A stretch of DNA of 15,809 nt, from the IMG/VR virus record IMGVR_UViG_2537561934_000016; one strand, written 5' to 3'. The notes under the pieces were generated by a model. It was not told where the DNA came from. It searched no databases and saw only the letters and a program-made list of their open reading frames with translations. Numbering within the stretch: position 1 is the stretch's first letter; the number at the start of each line of letters is the position of its first letter. A program made the position numbers and the translations under genes. The stretch comes from a virus (Duplodnaviria; Heunggongvirae; Uroviricota; Caudoviricetes). This document shows, piece after piece, positions 4,273 to 15,433 of the stretch.

Positions 4273-4947
4273 TTAGGCCTTTATTTTGTATCTTCTTGGT
4301 TTTCCTGAGAAAATCACTGTACCAATTATAGAGCAATTACCGTTGATCTTAATGTAAGGTTCAGGCCAGTTTGGGTTTAATGCTTTGAGGTAACGCTGTG
4401 TTCCATCTTCTATCAACCGCTTGAAGGTGGTTTCGCCTGTATCGTGCATCAATGCAATAACGTCGTCACCGTGGCAGGCAGGGACTTCAGGATCAACAAA
4501 AATCATGTCTCCCGGGCGGTACTCATCAATCATTGAATCACCAATCACCCGCAAGATATAAGTCATTTCGCCACAGGGTACAGGGCAGGGATAAGTTTCT
4601 GCTGTGCTCAAATCAACCTCAGAATAGCCAACTTCTTTCCATGCTCCGGCCTGTACCCATGATATGACAGGGACTAACGTTATTTGTTTGTTAGTGATTG
4701 AAACGTCAGGTTTTTTTGTGATGTTCGTTGTCTGGTGTTCTTGATCAAGCCATCCGACAGGCAGGTCGAAACATTTTTCGATGTGCCGTGCCATGCTGTC
4801 ACCGATATTTTTAGTTGCACCATCTCCCATAAACCTGCTGGTCTGGGTTGGCTCGCGATCAATCATGGTGGCAAAGGAAGAATTCCCGCCAACACCATCT
4901 CTCAGTTTTCTGGCGTTAGACCGCCGGATGTCATGGACTGTTTTCAT
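4273..4947 (-). CDS. cI: Phage CI-type repressor, N-terminal DNA-binding domain plus C-terminal S24 (LexA-like) autopeptidase domain, 224 aa
   Basis: C-terminal domain carries the S24 catalytic motifs: Ser in ILRVIGDSMIDEY and Lys in TTFKRL. The N-terminal region ends in the DLPVGWLD pattern typical of phage repressor DNA-binding domains. Divergent from a cro-like gene. Confidence 0.85.
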   Translation of the reverse strand: MKTVHDIRRSNARKLRDGVGGNSSFATMIDREPTQTSRFMGDGATKNIGDSMARHIEKCFDLPVGWLDQEHQTTNITKKPDVSITNKQITLVPVISWVQAGAWKEVGYSEVDLSTAETYPCPVPCGEMTYILRVIGDSMIDEYRPGDMIFVDPEVPACHGDDVIALMHDTGETTFKRLIEDGTQRYLKALNPNWPEPYIKINGNCSIIGTVIFSGKPRRYKIKA

Positions 4948-5247: not shown

Positions 5248-5933
5248 CGGATGTTTTTCATAAAAGCTGGCCGCTGGCCTCCGATCCTTCTCAACAAATG
5301 CGACTGATGGCAATGGCGGTGGACTCCGGCGGTGAAGACGGGGTCACTGATAATGCCTATAAATTCTGGCGTCGTTGCCGTCGTGATGGCCTTGGTAAAC
5401 GTATTTACCTGTTTAAGGGCGACAGCATCCGGCGCGCAAAACTGATCACCCGTACATTCCCTGATAACACCGGACGAACGGGCCGACGGGCGCAGGCCGC
5501 AGGTGATGTACCGCTCTGGCTTCTTCAGACGGATGCCCTGAAAGACCGGGTGAATAACGCGTTATGGCGTGACTCGCCAGGTCCCGGCTATGTGCATTTC
5601 CCTGACTGGCTGGGGAGCTGGTTTTACGACGAACTGACGTATGAAGAGCGGAGCAGTGACGGGAAATGGAGTAAGCCGGGTCGCGGTGCCAACGAAGCTT
5701 TTGACCTGATGGTGTATGCCGAGGCTCTGGTCATTCTGCATGGATACGAAAAGATCCGCTGGCCGGATGCACCGGAGTGGGCGAGCCGGGAAACCTGGCT
5801 GGAGTGTGTCCCGGACAGTACCGAACCGTCACCCACACCGGAACCGGTATCCACGCCTGTTAAAAAACAAAAACGGAAGAAAACAGTAACTGACGATGTT
5901 AACCCCTGGCTGACTTCCGGAGGATGGTTATGA
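5208..5933 (+). pseudogene. 3' fragment of lambda-type terminase large subunit (gpA-like C-terminal region), no start codon
   Basis: Reading frame opens straight after a TGA at 5205-5207 with no plausible start. Its stop overlaps the next start in an ATGA arrangement, as at the lambda A-W junction. Followed by gpW-like and portal genes. The ATPase N-terminal part and the small subunit are absent. Confidence 0.65.
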
Positions 5934-6142
5934 ATCAGAATGATATTGAAGCCATGATTCAGCGTTATACGGAAGCTGAAATGGCGGTGCTGGACGGAAA
6001 ATCCGTCACTTTTAATGGTCAGCAGATGACCATGGAAAACTTATCTGAGATCCGGCAGGGGCGGCAGGAGTGGGAGCGCCGCCTTGCGGCTCTGATTACA
6101 CGACGACGGGGGCATCCCGGGTACCGGCTGGCGAGGTTCTGA
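5930..6142 (+). CDS. gpW-like head-tail joining protein, 70 aa
   Basis: ATG at 5930 with GGAGG 7 nt upstream. C-terminus RRRGHPGYRLARF resembles the lambda gpW C-terminus (RRRGPAGFYV, recalled). Lies between terminase and portal as in lambda. Confidence 0.65.
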   Translation: MNQNDIEAMIQRYTEAEMAVLDGKSVTFNGQQMTMENLSEIRQGRQEWERRLAALITRRRGHPGYRLARF

Positions 6143-7494
6143 TGGCAATTCTTGATGATGTGATTGGCGTTTTTTCACCAGGATGGAAAGCGGCAAGGCT
6201 GCGTTCCCGAGCGGTGATCCAGGCTTATGAGGCCGTAAAAACGACGCGGACACACAAAGCCCGACGGGAGAACCGAACTGCCGACCAGTTAAGCCAGTAC
6301 GGGGCCGTGTCGTTACGTGAGCAGGCCCGTTACCTTGATAACAACCACGATCTGGTCATTGGTGTATTTGACAAGCTGGAAGAACGGGTGGTGGGGAAAA
6401 ACGGGATTATTGTCGAGCCACATCCGGTATTACGCAATGGGGCCATTGCCCGTGACCTGGCAGCGGAGATACGCACCCGATGGAGTGAATGGTCTGTCAG
6501 TCCGGAAGTCACCGGGCAGTTTACCCGCCCGATGCTGGAACGTCTGATGCTGCGTACCTGGCTGCGCGATGGTGAGGTGTTTGCCCAGATGGTTTCCGGG
6601 CGCATAAACAGCCTGACGCCTTCTGCCGGTGTTCATTTCTGGCTGGAGGCGCTCGAGCCGGACTTTATTCCCATGACCAGTGATGAGAGCAACAGGCTGA
6701 ATCAGGGCGTGTTTGTTGATGACTGGGGGCGTCCCGAAAAATATCTGGTGTATAAAAGCCGTCCTGTATCCGGACGGCAGATGGAAACCAAAGAAGTGGA
6801 TGCAGAGCGAATGCTGCATCTTAAATTTGTTCGCCGTCTGCACCAGATGCGCGGGACGTCTTTATTGTCCGGTGTACTGATCCGCCTCAGTGCCCTGAAA
6901 GAGTATGAAGATTCTGAGCTGACTGCAGCAAGGATCGCCGCTGCTCTGGGGATGTACATCCGGAAAGGCGACGGACAGAGCTATGAACCGGATGGTAATG
7001 GCAGCAAGGAGAATGAACGCGAGCTTACCATTCAGCCAGGCATTATTTACGACGATCTGAAACCCGGCGAAGAAATCGGAATGGTGAAGTCGGATCGCCC
7101 CAATCCTAATCTTGAAACTTTTCGTAATGGTCAGTTGCGTGCAGTGGCGGCTGGTAGTCGTCTGAGTTTTTCCAGTACAGCGCGCAACTATAACGGCACT
7201 TACAGCGCCCAGCGTCAGGAGCTGGTTGAGTCTACTGATGGCTACCTGATCCTGCAGGACTGGTTTATTGGTGCCGTCACCCGCCCGATGTATCGTGCAT
7301 GGCTGAAACAGGCTGTGGCATCCGGTGTTATCAGGTTACCCCGCGATCTTGACCGTTCTTCACTGTATACCGCGGTGTATTCCGGACCAGTGATGCCGTG
7401 GATTGACCCTGTTAAGGAGGCTGAGGCCTGGAAAATCCAGATTCGTGGTGGAGCGGCGACAGAATCAGACTGGGTATCCGGCAGGAAACACTGA
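6142..7494 (+). CDS. Phage portal protein (lambda gpB position), 450 aa, possibly C-terminally truncated
   Basis: ATG at 6142 overlaps the gpW stop (TGATG). Called by synteny (terminase, W, portal) and size; the sequence is not obviously close to lambda gpB from memory. The track start at 6070 is an upstream extension and rejected. Confidence 0.6.
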   Translation: MAILDDVIGVFSPGWKAARLRSRAVIQAYEAVKTTRTHKARRENRTADQLSQYGAVSLREQARYLDNNHDLVIGVFDKLEERVVGKNGIIVEPHPVLRNGAIARDLAAEIRTRWSEWSVSPEVTGQFTRPMLERLMLRTWLRDGEVFAQMVSGRINSLTPSAGVHFWLEALEPDFIPMTSDESNRLNQGVFVDDWGRPEKYLVYKSRPVSGRQMETKEVDAERMLHLKFVRRLHQMRGTSLLSGVLIRLSALKEYEDSELTAARIAAALGMYIRKGDGQSYEPDGNGSKENERELTIQPGIIYDDLKPGEEIGMVKSDRPNPNLETFRNGQLRAVAAGSRLSFSSTARNYNGTYSAQRQELVESTDGYLILQDWFIGAVTRPMYRAWLKQAVASGVIRLPRDLDRSSLYTAVYSGPVMPWIDPVKEAEAWKIQIRGGAATESDWVSGRKH

Positions 7495-7498
7495 ATGA

Positions 7499-10342
7499 AT
7501 GCACCCGTGCGGAGCAGTCGGCCAGCGTGGTGCTCTGGGAACCCATGCGACTGATGCTGCAGGCTCAGCACGTGCAGCCAGCACATCAGCCGGGCAGGCC
7601 GCGACGTCGGCTCAGTCAGCGTCTTCCAGCGCAGGAACGGCATCAACAAAGGCTACTGAAGCATCAAAAAGTGCTGCCGCTGCAGAGTCCTCAAAAAGCG
7701 CGGCGGCTACCAGTGCCGGTGCGGCGAAAACGTCAGAAACGAATGCTGCAGCGTCACAAAAATCTGCAGCCACTTCTGCATCCACCGCGACCACGAAAGC
7801 GTCAGAAGCTGCCACCTCAGCCCGGGATGCGGCGGCCTCAAAAGAGGCAGCGAAATCATCAGAAACGAGCGCAGCCTCGAGCGCCAGTAGTGCAGCCTCT
7901 TCGGCAACGGCGGCAGGAAATTCCGCGAAGGCCGCAAAAACGTCTGAGACGAATGCGGATAACAGCGCACAGGCGGCAGCGGCCTCACAAACTGCATCGG
8001 CAAACTCCGCGACAGCAGCCAAAAAATCAGAAACCAACGCGAAAAATAGCGAGGCAGCAGCAAAGAGCAGCGAAACTAATGCTAAATCCAGTGAAACAAA
8101 CGCGGCGAAATCTGCAGCGGACGCACTTAATTATCGCAACCAGGCACAATCCGTTGTTGGTAACAATATTGGTCTTGGTGAAGTTGCTATGACCTGCACT
8201 GATATCTCTGTTGAGCCATCAGGTTATATTGGATTTATCAGGATTTACATCTCAGCGAAAGGTTATCCATCAGTAGCGTCTAGTGCCGGGGATAATCTTA
8301 TTTCTGGTTATATAGTTAGATCAGAAGTGTCAACAAAAAGATATTCCGGTCTATTTGTTGGTTCAGATACAAAATCATTGTATTCGTACATTTACAGCCA
8401 AAGTTCTGGCCCGCAATGGATACGTCATACCCGCAGAGATGAATTAAGCCGCTTTGGTCAAAATGAATCAACAACTCGTATGTATGGTCCAACTGGTGAT
8501 CGTTTCTTTGAAATCCATACTAACGGGAGTTGGGGGGTTTATGATTCTTCTTCTGGACAATGGTCTCCGTTAGGTTTAGCCCAGGGTGGTACTGGTGGAA
8601 GAACTATCGAGCAAGCACGTGCGAACTTGCGGGTAATGTATGAGCAAAAAGCTGGCCTTGCTAATACTGACCTAAACACCCTTACCGGTGAATATTCTGG
8701 TTTCTATCAACAACCAACGAGCGCTTACGCAACAGAAGAATTAAATTACCCAATCGGTCTGGCGGGCGCTTTAATAGTGCTCCAAACGAGAGCCAACACT
8801 GCTTCTTCCTGCGTTCAGGTGTACCACCCTTATAATAATCCGGGAATTACTTATAGACGAATATATGAAGGAGGTAGCGGTACCTGGTCTGAATGGAAGA
8901 GAGATGTATCAACAGAAAGGGTTGAAGAGGGAAAAGAAACAACTTACGTATATTCTACGTATTCTTCAGGCGCACCACGCTTACAGGTTTCCAAATCTGG
9001 TTTGTGGGGTTGTCATAATGGCACTGGCTGGTTGCCATTAGCTGTTGGGCAAGGAGGTACAGGTGCGACAACAGTAGAAGATGCGCGAAACAACTTAAGT
9101 CTTGGCGAAAGTAGCGCAGTTAAATTTAAAAACCTTACTTTAACCGAAGCGCTCGACACGACATTAGGACTGCTTACAAAAACAGGACGAGACTGGAACG
9201 CTCAGCATACTGATAACGTCGACAAATTTAGACCAATTGCAGGCAGTACAAACGGCCCGGCAGGCTCTATGGTTCTTGGCGGCATTCATGTTCAATTTAG
9301 TAAAAATTATGCTGTGCAGTTCGGAGGCCGCAATTCCGGTTTTTGGGGAAGAACAATTGAAAATGGAACGACGCAGGAATGGAAGAAATTACTAACAGTA
9401 GACGATCTCAATTCATCTACCGCTCTTGCTGTCAGGTCATTAACCACATCTAACCCGATAAAATCTGGCGGAGGGCGGATTGATGTCCTTGGAAGCACGT
9501 CAGACTATAGCAAAATGGATTGCTTTGTACGTGGGTTTGATAGCACCGGTAATTCTCTCGCGTGGGCGTTGGGTTCATCAGTCGGCGTAAGTAAGATGCT
9601 GTCGCTAAAAAATTTCTTTAGCGGAGCTGAGATACTGCTAAATGGTAATGACGGCGCGGTTCAACTCAAAACAGGTGCTGTTAACGGTGCTAAAGCGCAG
9701 GCGCTCACTATCAACAAGGATGAGGTTAACTCAACTGTTGATTTAACTCTTACAAAACAAACAGGGACTGGCAATCGTTTTGTTTTACAGAACTTAGGTA
9801 ATACAGAACTACCATTTGCTGTCAAGGTGTGGGGTTCAGGTGATCGACAAAACGTTTTTGAGGTTGGAACGTCTGCCGCGTATCTGTTTTATGCTCAAAA
9901 AACATCGTCAGGTCAGCTGTTTGATGTAAACGGTGCTATTAACTGTACAACACTGAATCAGTTATCAGACCGCGAGCTGAAAGACAATATTCAGATTATC
10001 AGTGACGCAACCGAAGCTATCCGTAAAATGAACGGGTACACCTACACACTTAAGGAAAACGGACTGCCTTACGCTGGTGTTATTGCACAGGAAGCAATGG
10101 AGGCAATACCGGAAGCGGTAGGCTCATTCACTCATTACGGTAAAGAGTTGCAGGGACCAACGGTTGACGGCAATGAATTACGTGAAGAAACACGTTATCT
10201 GAATGTTGACTACGCCGCCGTGACGGGCTTACTTGTTCAGGTCGCCCGTGAAACAGATGATCGCGTTACCGCGCTGGAAGAAGAAAACGCAGAATTAAAA
10301 CAAAGATTATCTGCAATTGAGGCGGCGCTTGCCTCTAAATAA
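7499..10342 (+). CDS. stf: Side tail fibre (Stf-like) protein, N-terminally truncated, with C-terminal S74 intramolecular-chaperone domain, 947 aa
   Basis: Residues from about 15 onward (ATDAAGSARAASTSAGQAATSAQ ... AAATSAGAAKTSETNAAASQKSAATSAS) match an internal region of lambda Stf as I recall it. The C-terminal part begins with the S74 autoproteolysis signature SDRELKDNIQ (Ser codon at 9965-9967) and ends in a coiled coil. The frame opens 1 nt after a TGA. Confidence 0.8.
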   Translation: MHPCGAVGQRGALGTHATDAAGSARAASTSAGQAATSAQSASSSAGTASTKATEASKSAAAAESSKSAAATSAGAAKTSETNAAASQKSAATSASTATTKASEAATSARDAAASKEAAKSSETSAASSASSAASSATAAGNSAKAAKTSETNADNSAQAAAASQTASANSATAAKKSETNAKNSEAAAKSSETNAKSSETNAAKSAADALNYRNQAQSVVGNNIGLGEVAMTCTDISVEPSGYIGFIRIYISAKGYPSVASSAGDNLISGYIVRSEVSTKRYSGLFVGSDTKSLYSYIYSQSSGPQWIRHTRRDELSRFGQNESTTRMYGPTGDRFFEIHTNGSWGVYDSSSGQWSPLGLAQGGTGGRTIEQARANLRVMYEQKAGLANTDLNTLTGEYSGFYQQPTSAYATEELNYPIGLAGALIVLQTRANTASSCVQVYHPYNNPGITYRRIYEGGSGTWSEWKRDVSTERVEEGKETTYVYSTYSSGAPRLQVSKSGLWGCHNGTGWLPLAVGQGGTGATTVEDARNNLSLGESSAVKFKNLTLTEALDTTLGLLTKTGRDWNAQHTDNVDKFRPIAGSTNGPAGSMVLGGIHVQFSKNYAVQFGGRNSGFWGRTIENGTTQEWKKLLTVDDLNSSTALAVRSLTTSNPIKSGGGRIDVLGSTSDYSKMDCFVRGFDSTGNSLAWALGSSVGVSKMLSLKNFFSGAEILLNGNDGAVQLKTGAVNGAKAQALTINKDEVNSTVDLTLTKQTGTGNRFVLQNLGNTELPFAVKVWGSGDRQNVFEVGTSAAYLFYAQKTSSGQLFDVNGAINCTTLNQLSDRELKDNIQIISDATEAIRKMNGYTYTLKENGLPYAGVIAQEAMEAIPEAVGSFTHYGKELQGPTVDGNELREETRYLNVDYAAVTGLLVQVARETDDRVTALEEENAELKQRLSAIEAALASK
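7540..8110 (+). repeat. Ala/Ser/Thr-rich degenerate tandem repeats inside the tail-fibre gene
   Basis: Repeated units of the form AAKTSETNA / AAKSSETNAKSSETNAAKSA. The GC-rich low-complexity DNA gives spurious long ORFs in other frames. Confidence 0.5.
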
Positions 10343-10348
10343 TATTAA

Positions 10349-10370
10349 GGGGCTGTGCGCCCCGTTTTAT
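10349..10370 (+). terminator. Intrinsic terminator after the tail-fibre gene
   Basis: GGGGC-TGTGC-GCCCC hairpin followed by GTTTTATT, 7 nt after the stop codon. Confidence 0.6.
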
Positions 10371-10384
10371 TGGGTAGGATGAAA

Positions 10385-10672
10385 ATGGGTATAACACCTT
10401 TCCTTCATGCACTTTGTGCTGTGGCTGCGCAGATACTGGTGGGGCTTTTTACCGGAAACTGGGTTTACGGAGCGATAGCCAGTTGTACGTTCTTCATTGC
10501 GGGCGAACACACCCAAGCATAATATCGCTGGATTGAAATGTTCGGGCATGGCAAGCGGATTAACATGCCGTGGTGGGGCGGTTTTGATCCACGCGCATGG
10601 GATGTGGCAAGCCTGATGGATTTTGCTGTGCCGATGGTAGCGTGTCTTCTGATCTGGCTGTTGATCCGTTGA
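10385..10672 (+). pseudogene. Small hydrophobic protein gene interrupted by one in-frame TAA (45 aa, stop, 49 aa)
   Basis: ATG at 10385 with AGGA 5 nt upstream. Translation MGITPFLHALCAVAAQILVGLFTGNWVYGAIASCTFFIAGEHTQA, then TAA at 10520-10522, then in the same frame YRWIEMFGHGKRINMPWWGGFDPRAWDVASLMDFAVPMVACLLIWLLIR. Below the ORF-track size cutoff. Family not recognised. Confidence 0.3.
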
Positions 10673-10680
10673 ACATAAAA

Positions 10681-10729
10681 AGCCGCAGCAACTTGCCATG
10701 GCAGGATACTGCGGCTGGTTTGTGAGTTT
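10681..10729. terminator. Candidate bidirectional terminator between the small membrane ORF and the RT gene
   Basis: 8-bp stem AGCCGCAG (10681-10688) / CTGCGGCT (10709-10716) enclosing a perfect 10-bp palindrome TGCCATGGCA. T-rich on both flanks (GGTTTGTGAGTTT on plus; TTTTATGT on minus). Confidence 0.35.
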
Positions 10730-10850
10730 AAATAGTGTGTTTATTGCGATATATTTTAATGACTTAATGGATTACATATCTATGATATTCCTGAAATATC
10801 CTCTTCAAGCTCTTTTACTGATTTCGCAATTTTAAATTTAAACTTCCTCT

Positions 10851-12149
10851 CTATTTCACTATTGCTAAGTTTTTTTCCTTCTCTTTACCTATCCACATAG
10901 AAACAAGTTCTCGTTTCTGAGATATATGTAGATTGTCAAAGTTAGGTATGTATTTAAAAGTCTCCGCTCTACCTCTGCGGAGTTCATAGAAAGTTTTAAT
11001 CAAAGATTTTGGTTTTATTTCTGATGAAAGGCCGAATCGGCGGATAAGATTATTGATAGTATGATTAACAGAGCGAAGTTGAGCTGTTGAGGTTATTTGT
11101 GAGAAGTACGATACCCATCCCAATCGTTTACCTTCAAACACACATCCCGTAATTCTGAGATTTAGTTTCCACTGACAATATGCAACAGCTCGTTCTTTAT
11201 CACGCTTACTTTTAGCTTGTAGTAGAGCGTGCCTATATGCAGTAAAAATTTTTGCTAAGGATGACTCAAATCTAAGAATGCTCTCATGTTTTATCAATAA
11301 TTCTCGATTTTCTATGTGGTATCCCAAAAAGTTAAAACTTTCATCCAAACTGCCTACTTTGGATTTTGAGTTCTCTTCATTTAATGGATGTGGGTTTAAA
11401 TTTAATGATTGAAGCTTATCAATGATATGAGAAGCTATTTTTGTTGCTTGATATTTTGGTGTTAAAATAAGAATGTCATCAACGTATCGCATGTACCATA
11501 TGTCATGCATTTTATTGATTTCATCATCGAAATTAGATAGTGATATTTCAGCTAAAATGTTTGATATCGCTAATCCCTGAGGTACTCCTCTGGTATTATT
11601 AGGGATACCTTTGCTTCCTGTGGTTCCACTTACAGTAGGCACGATTAATGATGATGTTATTAACTGTCTAATTTCTTTTTTTCTAATTTTATTTTTTATT
11701 GCATTAATTATCAATTTATGTTCAATTGAAGGATAGAAACTTTTAAGATCTATTTTTGCATATTCAGCATATAGACTGTTGTTTAATGCTTCTTTCAATG
11801 AGTCAATTACTGTATGTGGTAGTTTTAATCTGGACTTAGGATATATTTCCGTAAGGCATTCACAGAGAGCTCTAAGAGTAATTCTGTCCCTAGCAGTTGG
11901 TATGGAAATCTGTCTGGGTGTAGAGTTAGCGCCTTTAGATATTAATTTTTCTTTATATGCTGTAAATTTGTAATTGCCAGAATTAACCTTTTCAAAAATG
12001 AAAGTGATCTCATTTTTTATTGTCAAATCAAGTTTTGATGGGCGAATCCGATCTATGCCAATCGCTCCTGATTCTTTGATTTTTTCAGAGTATACTTTTA
12101 GAAGATTTTTTTTCGAGAATGACTTTTTAAAAATTCTGCTTGCAGTCAT
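10851..12149 (-). CDS. Reverse transcriptase (defence-associated Abi/UG/retron-like RT), about 432 aa
   Basis: RT motifs are readable in the translation: IPTARDRITLRAL, GVPQGLAISNILAEISLSNFDDEI, catalytic YMRYVDDILIL (YVDD) and FNFLGYHI, followed by a roughly 130-aa C-terminal extension. The track start at 12155 is TTG; the first ATG is at 12149. The start overlaps the 3' end of the upstream membrane-protein gene by 23 nt. Strongly AT-rich. Confidence 0.85.
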   Translation of the reverse strand: MTASRIFKKSFSKKNLLKVYSEKIKESGAIGIDRIRPSKLDLTIKNEITFIFEKVNSGNYKFTAYKEKLISKGANSTPRQISIPTARDRITLRALCECLTEIYPKSRLKLPHTVIDSLKEALNNSLYAEYAKIDLKSFYPSIEHKLIINAIKNKIRKKEIRQLITSSLIVPTVSGTTGSKGIPNNTRGVPQGLAISNILAEISLSNFDDEINKMHDIWYMRYVDDILILTPKYQATKIASHIIDKLQSLNLNPHPLNEENSKSKVGSLDESFNFLGYHIENRELLIKHESILRFESSLAKIFTAYRHALLQAKSKRDKERAVAYCQWKLNLRITGCVFEGKRLGWVSYFSQITSTAQLRSVNHTINNLIRRFGLSSEIKPKSLIKTFYELRRGRAETFKYIPNFDNLHISQKRELVSMWIGKEKEKNLAIVK

Positions 12150-12678
12150 AGTCAATCCAAAGATATATTAATGGGAGTATATAAAGTGCGGCAGTAATAA
12201 ATATTCGAAGTAATATCCATAAAATAACAATTATTTTTTCTTTTTGTGTGGGGATCCTCGTCTTAAGTCCAACTTGAGTTACCCTTGAAATTTTATCATC
12301 TATGTCACGGTGATTCTCAACCTCATTGAGCAAATTAAAATATTTTTCTTTCTGTTCAAGAGATAACTGTTGACTGGTGGTAATGTCAAAATAGAGTCGC
12401 TGTAGTGCAATATAATTCCTTCTCATGGCTATTGCTCGACCACGAAAATCTAGGTTAGATACGATCAGAGAAATACCCAGTAGAGCCACTGAAAGTATCG
12501 CCGCAACGACATCTGTATTATCTCCTAGAACCTTTGGAAATCGCAACGTTACAATTGAAAGTACCGCACTCAATATAGCATACCAAACGAGGATAAATTG
12601 AGAGTGTTTTTCAAGCCATTCTAGTCGATGGTGCGCTTGGATACGTGCTTTATATGTAAACCAAATATTGTCATGCAT
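12127..12678 (-). CDS. Multi-pass membrane protein (SLATT-like topology by inference), 183 aa, co-operonic with the RT
   Basis: ATG (cat 12676-12678) with AAGGA 6 nt upstream. Hydrophobic helices ILVWYAILSAVLSIVTLRF, VVAAILSVALLGISLIVSN and IIVILWILLRIFITAALYILPLIYLWI. The 3' end overlaps the RT start. Confidence 0.7.
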   Translation of the reverse strand: MHDNIWFTYKARIQAHHRLEWLEKHSQFILVWYAILSAVLSIVTLRFPKVLGDNTDVVAAILSVALLGISLIVSNLDFRGRAIAMRRNYIALQRLYFDITTSQQLSLEQKEKYFNLLNEVENHRDIDDKISRVTQVGLKTRIPTQKEKIIVILWILLRIFITAALYILPLIYLWIDYDCKQNF

Positions 12679-12689
12679 AAAAGATCCTT

Positions 12690-12832
12690 TTTAAAAGCGG
12701 AAGGGGCAGGATATATTGGAACCGTTGAACATCCTGCCCGGCAGGATCAGTGAGCATAAGCTCAACAGTAAAATATTACTGTTCATTATCAGAGCCGCCC
12801 TTGCATGCGCAAGAGGAAAAACCTGCCCCATC
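12690..12832 (-). ncRNA. Structured 5' leader or candidate non-coding RNA upstream of the membrane-protein/RT operon
   Basis: Three copies of an 8-9 bp element in inverted orientation: GGGGCAGGAT (12703-12712), the palindrome ATCCTGCCCGGCAGGAT (12731-12747) and CCTGCCCC (12822-12829). Further local hairpins at CAGTAA-AATA-TTACTG (12765-12780) and around TTGCATGCGCAA (12801-12812). No ORF. Confidence 0.25.
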
Positions 12833-12840
12833 CCTTTGAA

Positions 12841-12869
12841 TTATTACAATTTAATGATCTTAAAGTCAA
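12841..12869 (-). promoter_or_regulatory. Candidate sigma70 promoter for the leader/membrane-protein/RT operon
   Basis: Minus strand reads TTGACT (-35; plus 12864-12869), a 17-nt spacer, then TAATAA (-10; plus 12841-12846) preceded by TG. Sequence match only. Confidence 0.3.
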
Positions 12870-12900
12870 TACAAGTGAATGGTGTCCAGAGATGATGAAC

Positions 12901-13149
12901 TTAATGAACAAACCACTCGTCAGCAGACTCCCAGGTATCTTTCAGAGTCTCCTGAACAAAAGTTTTAGCTGAATCTTTATCAGCGGTGCGCGTAACAGAA
13001 AGGCCATCGTTGCTGGTGGCTTTTACGATCACTTCTACATCGTCATAACGTTTACTGATGCGTCGGGTTAATTCTTCCTTTAACGCATCCACAGCACCGG
13101 TTGGCATTTTAGTCATTTTTTCTTTGGCTATGCAGATTTCAATACGCAT
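12901..13149 (-). CDS. DinI-family (DNA-damage-inducible protein I-like) protein, 82 aa
   Basis: Translation [31 protein letters not shown] ... [11 protein letters not shown] matches the remembered DinI pattern (MRIEVTIAK ... ETWESADDWFV). AGGGGA 6 nt upstream of the ATG. Two LexA boxes lie directly upstream. Confidence 0.8.
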
Positions 13150-13161
13150 AAAAGTCCCCTA

Positions 13162-13181
13162 CACTGTATTTGTATACAGTA
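13162..13181. promoter_or_regulatory. LexA (SOS) box 1
   Basis: CACTGTATTTGTATACAGTA fits the CTGT-N8-ACAG consensus (TACTGTATATATATACAGTA) with an AT-rich core, 13-32 nt upstream of the dinI-like start. Confidence 0.6.
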
Positions 13182-13189
13182 TTATTTTT

Positions 13190-13209
13190 AACTGTATGGA
13201 TAAACAGTG
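13190..13209. promoter_or_regulatory. LexA (SOS) box 2
   Basis: AACTGTATGGATAAACAGTG fits CTGT-N8-ACAG. It lies 28 bp from box 1 and abuts the integrase stop codon. Confidence 0.5.
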
Positions 13210-14307
13210 TCAAGAGGTCTTATTTCTGCTCCTTTGGAGTTCTTCAAAACGATTATGTAAAGATTTCGGATACAGTTCGGTATATACCTGCCATAGCACG
13301 TTTAATGAACGATGCCCTGTAACCTGAGCGACTTCCTCAATACTAAAACCAGCCTCAAATAAGCGACTTGCCCCTTCTCTACGCAAATCATGGTATCTCA
13401 GATCTTTAATACCTAATTTGCTTCTTACCCTCTGAAATCCTGCGGTAACAGAAGTGCTGTTATATGGAAAAATGAATTCTGATTTTTTGGGTTGTCGCTG
13501 GACGATATCCCAGGCTTCCCCAAGCAAGGCAACTTTCATATGGTTGCCTTCCTTTTTACGTGGATCTTTCCTGTCTCTTACTAGTATAGATTTTTGTTCC
13601 TGGTCGAGATCTTCCCATCGTAACCGGCATACTTCTCCGATTCGCATACAGGACCACACAGAAAATTTGAGGATATCAACGAACGGAATTTTTGAGCATT
13701 TATGAGTAGATCGTTGTTGAAGGCCTTCAATGAGCATGTTCAGTTCATCAGATGCTGGTCTACGATTACGACGGTTTGATTTACCAATCAAACCGAGTTT
13801 AAGTAGATATGGACGAGCGCTTTTCGCCGGGTTTGATGTGTAATTGATTCCGTATACAGGTTTTGCCGCATCCAGAACACTGCCAAGATAACTAACATCG
13901 TGGCTGACTGTTGCTGGGCCTGCACCAGCGTTGTTTCTTAGCCTGCAATGTTCAATTACGTCATTTTCTGTCAGTTCAGATAGTTTGATCGCGGAGATGT
14001 CACTATCCATAAGCAGTTCCAGCACATATCTTTTAGTACGGCCTGCTTTACCTCCGGCATTTGGGTCATTTAAATATTTGTGTAGTAAGTCACGGACTGT
14101 AAGTCCGTCAACAGCATTTGATGATGGAATGCCATATAGATCTAATTCCATCACTTTCTGTGCGCCCCATGTTTTGGCATGAGCATGTTTAGGGAATGTT
14201 TTGCTTTCCCTGTAAGTGATAACACCTTTTTCTTTGATAATCACATTACAGCGATAGCGTGGTGTGCCATCGGATTTTAGTCGTTTCTCTATGTTATAGT
14301 ACGCCAT
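13210..14307 (-). CDS. int: Tyrosine recombinase / phage integrase (dusA-associated type by context), 365 aa
   Basis: Integrase-sized protein whose C-terminal region HDLRREGASRLFEAGFSIEEVAQVTGHRSLNVLWQVYTELY carries the His/Arg/Tyr pattern of tyrosine recombinases. Encoded divergently from dusA, 88 bp from its start. Confidence 0.9.
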   Translation of the reverse strand: MAYYNIEKRLKSDGTPRYRCNVIIKEKGVITYRESKTFPKHAHAKTWGAQKVMELDLYGIPSSNAVDGLTVRDLLHKYLNDPNAGGKAGRTKRYVLELLMDSDISAIKLSELTENDVIEHCRLRNNAGAGPATVSHDVSYLGSVLDAAKPVYGINYTSNPAKSARPYLLKLGLIGKSNRRNRRPASDELNMLIEGLQQRSTHKCSKIPFVDILKFSVWSCMRIGEVCRLRWEDLDQEQKSILVRDRKDPRKKEGNHMKVALLGEAWDIVQRQPKKSEFIFPYNSTSVTAGFQRVRSKLGIKDLRYHDLRREGASRLFEAGFSIEEVAQVTGHRSLNVLWQVYTELYPKSLHNRFEELQRSRNKTS

Positions 14308-14326
14308 TACACGACCTCGTTATTTC

Positions 14327-14362
14327 GGGTTCCCATAAAGCGTGGGAACCTGTGCGGGAACC
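14327..14362. promoter_or_regulatory. GGGAACC repeat cluster in the int-dusA intergenic region (candidate integrase or regulator binding sites)
   Basis: GGGTTCCC (14327-14334, inverted) plus two direct copies of GGGAACC (14344-14350 and 14356-14362) spaced 12 bp apart. Confidence 0.3.
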
Positions 14363-14395
14363 TAACGCGAGAAAAATAGCCTGAAATGTTCAAAA

Positions 14396-15433
14396 ATGCA
14401 CGATAATCCTGAAACACAGAAAACTAATCAAACCAGCGTGATGCCTGAAAAAACTGGCGCTTACTGGAGTTCTCGGTTTAGCATTGCTCCTATGCTCGAC
14501 TGGACGGACAGACATTGCCGCTATTTCTTGCGTCTGCTTTCCCGCAATACGTTGCTGTATACCGAAATGGTGACCACAGGGGCGATTATTCACGGTAAAG
14601 GTGATTACCTGGCGTACAGTGAAGAAGAACATCCGGTAGCGTTGCAACTCGGCGGTAGCGATCCGGCGGCGCTGGCACAGTGTGCGAAGCTGGCAGAAGC
14701 GCGTGGATATGATGAGATCAACCTGAATGTCGGCTGCCCGTCTGACCGGGTGCAGAACGGCATGTTTGGTGCGTGTCTGATGGGTAATGCGCAGCTGGTT
14801 GCCGACTGCGTGAAAGCGATGCGCGATGTGGTGTCGATTCCAGTGACGGTGAAAACGCGTATTGGCATCGATGACCAGGACAGCTATGAATTTCTCTGCG
14901 ATTTCATCAACACCGTTTCCGGCAAAGGCGAGTGTGAGATGTTTATCATCCACGCACGTAAAGCCTGGCTTTCGGGGTTAAGCCCGAAAGAAAACCGTGA
15001 AATCCCGCCGCTCGATTATCCGCGTGTGTATCAACTGAAGCGTGACTTTCCGCATCTGACAATGTCGATTAACGGTGGTATCAAGTCGCTGGAAGAGGCC
15101 AAAGCACACCTGCAACATATGGATGGCGTGATGGTCGGGCGCGAGGCGTATCAGAATCCGGGTATTCTGGCGGCGGTAGACCGGGAGATCTTTGGTTCCT
15201 CGGATACCGATGCCGATCCAGTGGCGGTAGTGCGCGCCATGTATCCGTACATTGAGCGTGAACTCAGCCAGGGGACGTATCTCGGCCATATTACCCGGCA
15301 TATGTTGGGCTTGTTCCAGGGTATTCCTGGCGCGCGGCAGTGGCGGCGTTATTTAAGTGAAAATGCCCATAAAGCGGGTGCAGACATTAATGTGCTGGAA
15401 CACGCGCTCAAACTGGTGGCGGATAAGCGTTAA
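14396..15433 (+). CDS. dusA: tRNA-dihydrouridine(20/20a) synthase DusA, 345 aa
   Basis: Translation carries the Dus family core ([19 protein letters not shown] ... [13 protein letters not shown] ... catalytic region) and ends ... LKLVADKR, as in E. coli DusA. An alternative in-frame start is at 14441 (MPEKTG). The 5' end may be element-supplied. Confidence 0.9.

Follow-up and report, generated by a model that had tools for sequence, protein, structure and literature searches.

Introduction

The UG17 reverse transcriptase (RT) family corresponds to DRT10, an E. coli anti-phage system whose product is telomerase-like repeat DNA and which has been described in three papers (PMC12632851; 10.64898/2026.04.29.721553; 10.64898/2026.06.29.735271; preprints of October 2025, April 2026 and June 2026), all of which give the gene order as ncRNA, SLATT, RT. 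Protein-linked tandem-repeat cDNA, and defence that depends on the RT, the SLATT protein and the ncRNA together, have been reported for the Eco1, Eco2 and Eco3 DRT10 systems, for six further homologues and for the E3659 system. The Eco3 RT is reported to be 456 aa long with S456 at its end, a mis-annotated start adding two residues. In Eco3DRT10 the S456A substitution abolishes both cDNA synthesis and defence, and a 5-aa deletion within the C-terminal helix abolishes defence.

Here we compare with these systems a two-gene locus in the window, by which we mean the whole 15,809-nt stretch of DNA that was analysed. An initial annotation had proposed an RT-based anti-phage system with a membrane effector and a structured leader upstream, in a gene order that it could place in no described family. 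We consider the best overall explanation to be an Eco3-type DRT10 carried as cargo on a degraded prophage and recently inactivated by the loss of one nucleotide, so that it would neither prime cDNA nor defend its host (probability roughly 0.7).

Results

The locus is a known type of defence system

Among the PADLOC profiles, RT_UG17 gave by far the best match to the RT (E 7.9e-151, 500.7 bits), and the match was near full length, with RT residues 3-428 aligning to profile positions 1-402 of 429; the runners-up were Drt3a (1.3e-37), Drt2 (1e-24) and Drt9 (7e-20). The Pfam domain RVT_1 spans residues 74-281, and the YVDD active site, described earlier as intact, occupies residues 222-225 and is invariant in 30 aligned sequences. 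The profile searches proposed in the initial annotation also identified the partner protein, which matched RTasSLATT in PADLOC and SLATT_5 in Pfam (E 1.3e-28, 100.1 bits against a cut-off of 29.5). This protein is 100% identical to WP_000543834.1 (strain AR434), and its Kyte-Doolittle hydrophobic segments, at approximately residues 28-48, 56-76 and 149-172, agree with the three transmembrane helices predicted for it. As in DRT10, the SLATT gene is co-oriented with the RT gene, adjoins it and is tightly coupled to it, the SLATT stop and the RT ATG overlapping by the 23 nt that had been noted (12127-12149).

Table S1 of PMC12632851 contains the same RT and SLATT sequences, or sequences 1 residue apart (UG17_locus_457 and UG17_locus_495). 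The locus is almost certainly a DRT10 of the Eco3 type (UG17, with the SLATT-then-RT arrangement), and the system is already known rather than an unplaced family. The initial annotation was right to propose RT-based phage defence involving a membrane effector and a structured leader, these parts being the SLATT effector and the functional upstream ncRNA of DRT10. The statement that the gene order fits no described family has to be abandoned in view of the two profile matches and the published DRT10 order; UG17 has already been characterised as DRT10 with exactly this gene order, and membership of a well-characterised family of the same architecture is the outcome that the initial annotation had itself set against its proposal. 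The positions of all features are collected in Table 1.

Table 1. Features of the DRT10 locus and its surroundings, in window coordinates.
Feature	Position	Strand	Basis or remarks
Tail fibre with S74 chaperone domain	7499-10342	+	Pfam
Probable intrinsic operon terminator	10681..10716	-	AGCCGCAG...CTGCGGCT hairpin, then TTTTT; local fold -21.3 kcal/mol
Orphaned coding remnant in the -1 frame	10780..10869	-	LSNSEIERKFKFKIAKSVKELEEDISGIS followed by a stop; equals the C-terminal helix and priming Ser456 of the intact RT
UG17/DRT10 RT, truncated ORF, 432 aa	10851..12149	-	ATG 12149, stop 10851; ends ...GKEKEKNLAIVK
Frameshift site	10870..10876	-	A7 on the coding strand (T7 on the plus strand) versus A8 in intact alleles
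SLATT_5 effector, 183 aa, intact	12127..12678	-	PADLOC RTasSLATT E 1.5e-56; Pfam SLATT_5
DRT10 ncRNA, 137 nt	12697..12833	-	Homology with Eco3DRT10 numbering
A' realignment segment CAAU (nt 116-119)	12715..12718	-	Shares 3 nt (CAA) with A (CAAC)
Predicted template A-B, 5'-CAACGGUUC-3' (nt 107-115)	12719..12727	-	Column-for-column alignment with CAAUGAUUC
Sigma-70 ncRNA promoter	12840..12869	-	TTGACT, 18-nt spacer, TG-AATAAT (extended -10)
DinI-like gene	12901-13149	-	Pfam DinI; RefSeq annotation of identical loci
Tyrosine integrase	13210-14307	-	Pfam Phage_integrase; RefSeq annotation of identical loci
dusA	14396-15433		Adjoins the integrase gene

Genomic context

The module is cargo on a degraded, dusA-integrated E. 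coli prophage. Its placement between tail fibre and int was described correctly, the tail fibre lying on one side and DinI, int and dusA on the other, and so was its AT-richness, with a GC content of 0.31-0.34 over 10700-12300 against 0.44-0.50 in the flanks. A megablast search of the INPHARED phage collection with the cassette returned no match; the cassette is known only from prophages. Deletion of the associated recombinase left defence unaffected in published DRT10 work, and by analogy the DinI-like gene and the integrase are presumably not needed for DRT10 function. At the other end of the operon, a consensus terminator scan did not pick up a terminator because its loop limit was 8 nt; folding located the hairpin at 10681..10716 instead, which is probably the operon terminator.

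The upstream RNA and its template

The structured leader reported upstream of the SLATT gene corresponds to the DRT10 ncRNA, with a folding energy of -57 to -59 kcal/mol and a z-score of -4.85 relative to shuffled sequences. Its layout comprises the SL1 basal stem, SL2, loop A (with G44), SL3, SL4, SL5 and loop B, the template loop. Setting nt 1 at 12833 puts the published landmarks G44, C107 and G111 all in the correct place. The promoter, located 7 nt upstream of this inferred 5' end, has 10 of 12 consensus matches as well as the TG element, and is invariant in six E. coli alleles. A scan of genome contigs yielded 20 loci, 13 of them with an alignable Eco3-like ncRNA, while seven alpha-proteobacterial loci (31-34% identity) were left out of the ncRNA alignment. 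RNAalifold on 16 sequences recovered the same five helices: helix cells were paired in 95.7% of cases versus 49-56% in slid controls, compensatory changes were found in 16 of 35 pairs, and none of 500 shuffles reached the observed values. Rfam searches at permissive E-values over 10300-14500 gave only chance miRNA matches, there being no curated Rfam family for the DRT10 ncRNA.

Three nt after SL5, the template loop shows the A-B-A' pattern of DRT10, reading CAAC-GGUUC-CAAU at nt 107-119. A (U)CAA(N) A/A' repeat with a period of 9-11 nt and the same loop start was present in 14 of the 16 homologous ncRNAs. At the template the CE10 and ETEC1748 alleles carry CAAUGAUUC, of which the cDNA repeat published for Eco3DRT10, GAATCATTG, is the reverse complement, and a homology of 3 nt between A and A' was sufficient in the published truncation series. 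[quoted passage not shown]

The window allele itself creates that alternative GUUC...GUUC register, which has an 8-nt period (CGTTGAAC). A template read as GUUC-AACG-GUUC with this period was demoted to an alternative on the basis of the alignment with Eco3-type alleles and the halting of the RT at C107.

A probable single-nucleotide loss truncates the RT

The 432-aa length assigned to the RT by the initial annotation holds for the ORF as encoded, but the native length is 456 aa, a 1-nt homopolymer deletion having been overlooked. (Starting at TTG 12155 instead of ATG 12149 would give 434 aa, adding 'MT'.) In near-identical loci the intact RT has 456 aa, and homologues with identities as low as 59% range from 454 to 457 aa; all 28 full-length homologues keep the C-terminal tail with its terminal Ser. 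At the frameshift site, where the window has A7, nearly all relatives carry A8; with one A lost from this run, the RT stops at residue 432 (...NLAIVK) rather than 456, and intact residues 427-456 are missing. The encoded RT does not end in the conserved C-terminal helix with a priming Ser/Tyr that characterises DRT10. Translation of the orphaned remnant is identical to the tail of the 456-aa proteins, and an AF2 model, which with Foldseek confirms the RT fold and the C-terminal helix, places this helix at residues 430-452. Neither the Foldseek PDB library (entries to April 2026) nor a PDB sequence search contained a solved DRT10 chain. Judged by its sequence, the locus is DRT10 by descent and yet incomplete, because the C-terminal helix and Ser456 are encoded only in the -1 frame.

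The A7/A8 length is the sole difference between the window and AR434 over 2251 nt. The best whole-window match spans 15,810 nt, and every single-piece whole-window match is 1 nt longer than the window. When a 91-nt probe was compared with 98 complete genomes, two were identical to the window's A7 sequence and 96 differed, 27 of the latter being listed at 98.9%, which corresponds to a single-gap difference. NCBI and Logan assemblies contained the exact 432-aa protein on 19 independent contigs. Eight of the ten listed occurrences matched the window at 100% identity along their alignments, which run from 1.9 to 9.0 kb, and two backgrounds with the 432-aa product differed from the window by 4 and 10 SNPs. 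The same truncation occurred on two other RT backbones (9 and 4 contigs), making three backbones in all; at least 1000 contigs were recovered for each of the two intact alleles that were looked up.

The A7 allele leaves an in-frame A_AAA_AAC heptamer at this site, owing to which some full-length RT could return through -1 ribosomal or RNA-polymerase slippage.

Discussion

Expected function of the locus

The following steps have been established for Eco3DRT10, which is 99% identical, and by homology would apply to an intact copy of this locus. The separately promoted 137-nt ncRNA would bind the RT, and the first nucleotide would be joined to the hydroxyl of the RT's own C-terminal serine, S456, positioned by the conserved C-terminal helix. 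The 9-nt loop B template would be copied up to the boundary set by SL5 (C107), after which the nascent DNA would unpair and re-anneal on the downstream A', and repetition of this cycle would yield kilobase-long tandem-repeat ssDNA. Host ExoI (SbcB) together with SSB-like proteins of the phage would determine the ssDNA level, and the ssDNA may control the SLATT membrane effector; the changes in cDNA level that two groups report upon infection go in opposite directions. In the window copy, with an encoded RT that ends at residue 432 without the helix and S456, neither cDNA priming nor defence is predicted. By analogy with the mutants of the 99%-identical homologue, a real frameshift would very likely abolish defence. 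Published work describes a non-linear relation between cDNA yield and defence, which counts against a firm call of inactivity. Inactivation of this copy would be recent, given that the ncRNA, the SLATT gene and the orphaned tail codons have all remained perfect.

Alternative explanations

The probability that the locus represents a retron, the maturase of a group II intron or a DRT of another type (DRT3, DRT9 or DRT2) instead of DRT10 is close to nil. Foldseek does show the RT fold to be similar to that of DRT9 and of group II intron-like RTs (E 5e-14 to 2e-12), homologues are entered in some database records as 'retron-type RT', and there are the weaker PADLOC matches to Drt3a, Drt2 and Drt9; against this, the UG17 match lies more than 110 orders of magnitude ahead of every other profile, and the likeness to GsI-IIC and G2L4, obtained with Foldseek on the AF2 model, is at fold level only (17-20% identity). 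No group II intron and no retron msr family was found by Rfam at E <= 1 over 10300-14500, Pfam gives RVT_1 only for the RT, and DRT3 would need a second RT, which is absent here. The template loop has neither the poly-U of DRT9 nor the ACA-flanked 120-nt template of DRT2, and carries the DRT10 pattern. It is also unlikely, if less markedly so, that A7 is a sequencing or assembly error in an ordinary, intact and functional DRT10. Such a reading would account for a difference of a single homopolymer base, the type of assembly error met most often, across 15.8 kb that are otherwise 100% identical, for the 96 complete genomes in which the A7 sequence is missing, and for the abundance of the intact counterpart. 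We nevertheless consider the frameshift probably real, because the same truncated protein occurs on 19 independent contigs, in separate NCBI and Logan assemblies and in backgrounds several SNPs away, and because the truncation recurs on three RT backbones. An 8-base run is, moreover, short for a systematic error in Illumina-type assemblies.

Granted a real frameshift, the A-run might be a phase-variable contingency switch or a slippage site, with A7 as a reversible OFF or low state in which some full-length RT is made; a system that turns toxic when ExoI runs short would thereby have its cost tuned. The frameshift arose on three distinct RT backbones, the -1 frame 3' of the run is undecayed, and a slippery heptamer is present in frame. 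A selective reason for switching off is also available, DRT10 being lethal in a delta-sbcB host unless RT, SLATT or ncRNA is inactivated, as published. However, folding of the region 3' of the A-run in search of a stimulatory structure revealed none (-5.2 kcal/mol over 77 nt), and the A8 run is not kept outside E. coli, where the sequence of homologues is KAKML, KERKL or the like. Compared with the intact alleles, the truncated ones are rare, and such rarity fits sporadic loss as well as switching. We regard this possibility as improbable. The same low probability applies to the idea that the A8 run before the priming helix is a recurrent, possibly reversible on/off site in E. coli lineages, at which a 1-nt slip removes only the self-priming tail. 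If true, low-level slippage could hold cDNA below threshold, providing a natural tuning of the autoimmune cost of an ExoI-dependent, telomerase-like defence RT.

Under our preferred explanation of a recently inactivated Eco3-type DRT10, the finding moves from an unplaced RT-membrane pair to known DRT10/UG17, and its value is modest and mainly for specialists. It provides a natural loss-of-function allele, on three RT backbones, that removes exactly the C-terminal priming module identified by the 2025-2026 mutagenesis. The existence of 99%-identical systems with different templates supports free drift of the cDNA repeat sequence, allowed while A-A' homology and the spacing from SL5 are kept. 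The locus also illustrates an annotation pitfall, as automated defence annotation would label it an intact DRT10 because both genes match their profiles though the priming tail is missing.

Comparison with known systems

The closest known system is Eco3DRT10 (RT OKX54664; Tang et al. 2025, PMC12632851; Ramirez et al. 2026, 10.64898/2026.06.29.735271). It shares with the window the ncRNA-SLATT-RT order with overlapping genes, an RT of 456 aa (once that of the window is repaired) with YVDD and terminal S456, and a 137-nt ncRNA with the same promoter, stem-loops, loop A (G44) and loop B. The identity figures for Eco3DRT10 were obtained via the E. coli CE10 allele, which has the exact Eco3 template, CAAUGAUUC-CAAU, and whose RT and SLATT are identical to the intact window type at 450 of 456 and 179 of 183 residues. 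Two substitutions separate the templates: with U110C and A112G, the window has CAACGGUUC in place of the CAAUGAUUC of Eco3DRT10, which changes the predicted repeat from GAATCATTG to GAACCGTTG and shortens the A/A' homology from 4 nt to 3 nt. The window's RT is also frameshifted and lacks residues 427-456.

UG17-A of Escherichia sp. E3659 (Sanchez-Nieto et al. 2026, 10.64898/2026.04.29.721553) and Eco1DRT10 belong to the same family and have the same gene order, with a structured, independently transcribed ncRNA preceding SLATT, and both make tandem-repeat cDNA. Defence needs all three parts, and the systems are SbcB-dependent. They fall into a different clade from the system in the window: the E3659 RT is approximately 445 aa (1338 nt, from published coordinates), its ncRNA has 143 nt, six stem-loops and a 7-nt repeat, and the Eco1 priming residue is Tyr444. 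The published DRT10 covariance models are not transferable between ncRNA types.

More distantly, DRT9 (UG28) is likewise a class 2 UG RT that copies an ncRNA template and uses a C-terminal residue for protein priming, with a similar ncRNA architecture, and its structures rank near the top of those matching the AF2 model (9nlx, 9vku). It differs in its poly-U template, poly-dA product, hexameric assembly and lack of an obligatory SLATT partner, and its PADLOC profile is a far weaker match here. The parallel drawn in PMC12632851 with telomerase (TERT and TR) concerns repeat-addition processivity on a short internal RNA template that comes with an alignment segment and a structured 5' template boundary. 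Telomerase differs in that it primes on chromosome ends and not on its own serine, is far larger, at 1132 aa as opposed to 456 aa, and has no role in defence.

The operon is a DRT10 system

The reverse transcriptase (RT) matched the PADLOC family RT_UG17 over nearly its full length (E 7.9e-151, versus 1.3e-37 for the second-best family, Drt3a), and the upstream protein matched both the PADLOC RT-associated SLATT profile (E 1.5e-56) and Pfam SLATT_5. The window RT and SLATT proteins, or one-residue variants of them, are UG17_locus_457 and UG17_locus_495 in Table S1 of PMC12632851. The initial annotation had proposed an RT-based anti-phage system that it could not place in a described family, and had called for a profile search. 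The defence interpretation was right, as RT_UG17 is the DRT10 defence family of published work, but the search returned a known family, since UG17 has already been characterised as DRT10 (PMC12632851; 10.64898/2026.04.29.721553; 10.64898/2026.06.29.735271). The window system is DRT10/UG17 of the Eco3DRT10 type (a tested E. coli system) and already known; all that is new is a frameshift through which the priming tail is lost.

Other parts of the annotation agreed with our analysis. Both open reading frames lie where it had placed them, the RT carries YVDD (residues 222-225), and the 23-nt overlap with an upstream protein having three hydrophobic segments was confirmed from the reading frames and hydropathy. 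An alternative TTG start at 12155 would give an RT of 434 aa. The AT-rich block between tail fibre and integrase was likewise recovered, with GC of 0.31-0.34 across 10700-12300 versus 0.44-0.50 in the flanks, and by Pfam the flanking genes encode a tail fibre bearing an S74 chaperone domain, DinI, a tyrosine integrase and DusA.

Features of the DRT10 operon in the window
Feature	Position	Strand	Details
ncRNA promoter	12869-12840	minus	TTGACT, 18-nt spacer, TG-AATAAT
DRT10 ncRNA	12697-12833	minus	nt 1 at 12833, 7 nt downstream of promoter
Predicted template	12727-12719	minus	CAACGGUUC, by homology
Predicted A'	12718-12715	minus	CAAU, by homology
SLATT ORF	12127-12678	minus	183 aa
RT ORF	ATG 12149 to stop 10851	minus	432 aa as encoded

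Three E. coli UG17 operons provide phage defence, which requires the RT active site, the SLATT gene and a ~137-nt ncRNA just upstream of SLATT (Tang et al., bioRxiv, Oct 2025; PMC12632851). In complex with its ncRNA, the RT synthesises tandem-repeat ssDNA of kilobase length. This DNA is primed covalently from a C-terminal serine (S456 in Eco3DRT10) and grows by telomerase-like repeat addition, programmed by an A-B-A' pattern in the loop after stem-loop 5 (PMC12632851). Sanchez-Nieto et al. (Apr 2026; 10.64898/2026.04.29.721553) described subtypes, toxicity suppressed by SbcB (ExoI) and a phage SSB-like trigger. Cryo-EM structures showed two RTs per ncRNA, with the RT halting at C107 (Ramirez et al., Jun 2026; 10.64898/2026.06.29.735271).

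The upstream ncRNA

The structured leader that had been noticed upstream is the DRT10 ncRNA, as judged from its promoter, fold, covariation and landmarks. Its fold (-59 kcal/mol, z = -4.85) has a basal stem that encloses four stem-loops together with two single-stranded loops. We compared 16 ncRNAs: the window, two other E. coli alleles and 13 loci with RTs of 58-70% identity from Photorhabdus, Buttiauxella, Pseudomonas and Stutzerimonas. When these were aligned independently with MAFFT, RNAalifold gave the same five helices. On the consensus structure 95.7% of cells were paired, versus 49-56% when partners were slid by 1-3 columns, compensatory double changes occurred in 16 of the 35 pairs, and none of 500 shuffles matched the observed pairing values. 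Numbering from nt 1 at 12833 puts the published landmarks G44 (loop A), C107 (template 5′ boundary) and G111 (loop B) on the correct bases, which therefore fixes the ncRNA position listed in the table.

The SLATT start codon lies 18 nt from the ncRNA 3′ end (…CCGC, then UUUU; window 12679-12696), and a promoter scan of this gap found no separate promoter. The SLATT-RT mRNA may therefore derive from the ncRNA transcript, either through read-through or by processing. In the DRT10 literature ncRNA expression is described as 'independent'. In strain MS20649 (NZ_CP082087.1; locus L002, 3793-5021, equivalent to window ~12900), an IS2 element separates the DinI gene from the ncRNA promoter, with ncRNA, SLATT and RT intact; RefSeq places an IS2 under the match in two further genomes.

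A probable frameshift removes the priming tail

Over 2251 nt the window differs from E. coli AR434 solely by one missing homopolymer base, a plus-strand T7 at 10870-10876 versus T8 (coding strand A7 versus A8). The closest match over the whole window has 100% identity and spans 15,810 nt, versus 15,809 in the window. The frame shifts after residue 426 and the encoded protein ends ...EKNLAIVK, whereas the RefSeq RT in AR434 and other genomes is 1371 nt, 456 aa. In the -1 frame the window still encodes the complete native tail, KLSNSEIERKFKFKIAKSVKELEEDISGIS, which ends at a stop at 10780-10782. At identities as low as 59%, homologues have 454-457 aa, and an ...ELExDIxxxS tail with a terminal serine was found in all 28 full-length sequences aligned. 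An AlphaFold2 model of the intact RT (pLDDT 85.7) forms this tail as a helix (residues 430-452). The model is closest in fold to solved structures of G2L4, group II intron RTs and DRT9, and neither Foldseek with the model (PDB entries to April 2026) nor a PDB sequence search returned a DRT10 chain.

Defence by Eco3DRT10 is abolished by S456A. It is also abolished when as few as five residues are deleted from the conserved C-terminal helix, even if a terminal serine remains (10.64898/2026.06.29.735271). Because of this, the window RT as encoded is predicted to be unable to self-prime and the locus to lack defence; most likely, the frameshift makes this copy inactive.

We consider it probable (roughly 0.8) that the frameshift is a real, rare and recurrent loss-of-function allele rather than an artefact. 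A 91-nt probe found the A7 sequence identical in only two of 98 complete genomes, one being ETEC1748, which carries a different prophage at prfC and the Eco3 template. The exact 432-aa protein has several NCBI accessions in a public protein collection and occurs on 19 contigs in NCBI and Logan assemblies, versus at least 1000 for the intact window-type protein; eight of the ten places shown are 100% identical to the window over aligned stretches of 1.9-9.0 kb, and the other two differ by 4 and 10 SNPs. The same truncation is found on two further RT backbones, P0122 (9 contigs) and P0138 (ETEC1748 type, 4 contigs), each a single residue from its closest intact relative. As the three backbones, including that of the window (P0121), lie 5-8 residues apart, this suggests that the frameshift arose independently at a homopolymer hotspot. 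Selection for DRT10 loss is plausible, given that active DRT10 is lethal without ExoI. Alternatively, the A-run might serve as a phase variation or slippage site, and an A_AAA_AAC heptamer is in frame there; however, the A-run lacks downstream structure and is not conserved outside E. coli, and truncated alleles are rare, making such a role improbable.

Genomic context

Of 5426 complete E. coli genomes, 188 carried the DinI-ncRNA-SLATT-RT cassette, which had no match in a phage genome collection. In the loci examined it sits at a prophage end, either dusA-integrated (window, AR434) or beside prfC (CE10, MS6192, ETEC1748). The prophage looks degraded: within 5298-10342, a 211-aa large-terminase-subunit fragment, a head-tail adaptor and a portal gene lead directly into the tail-fibre gene, with the intervening capsid and tail genes absent. 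Still present is a CI/LexA-like repressor that has an S24 peptidase domain (4273-4947, minus). In other genomes the match to the window is split into two pieces, together spanning ~23 kb. Between tail fibre and RT (10355-10640, plus), a small hydrophobic reading frame is interrupted after 55 aa; RefSeq marks an 'internal stop' at the identical AR434 locus, and the CE10 protein is intact at 95 aa (WP_001395372.1). The tail fibre, 947 aa long, begins with ~230 residues of low-complexity, Ala/Ser/Thr/Lys-rich sequence (7499-8200; …AAKSSETNAKSSETNAAKSA…), and some gene calls use a later start (717 aa).

Template variation relative to Eco3DRT10

Loop B, the template loop after stem-loop 5, reads GUU-CAACGGUUC-CAAU-AUAU in the window, and the predicted cDNA repeat would be GAACCGTTG. 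Its A-A' homology comprises 3 nt, followed at the fourth position by a dG·rU apposition; 3 nt sufficed in published truncations. In 14 of the 16 ncRNAs a (U)CAA(N) A/A' repeat, with a period of 9-11 nt, begins at the same position in the loop. A perfect 4-nt repeat with an 8-nt period, GUUC...GUUC, also arises in the window-type allele and could be a cryptic realignment register; we rank it second because its use needs read-through past the C107 boundary.

The CAACGGUUC template is common to the window, MS6192, 01G17 and HCM-28C-2, and CAAUGAUUC occurs in CE10 and ETEC1748 (window 12715-12727 versus loci L005 and L003); templates differ among DRT10 systems that are 99% identical. In the CE10 and ETEC1748 alleles the same columns read CAAUGAUUC-CAAU, and the exact reverse complement of the published Eco3DRT10 repeat, GAATCATTG, is CAAUGAUUC, with its A' segment next. 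As CE10 is also nearly identical to the intact window type in RT (450/456) and SLATT (179/183), the window represents a naturally occurring Eco3DRT10-type variant whose template carries two substitutions (U110C, A112G).
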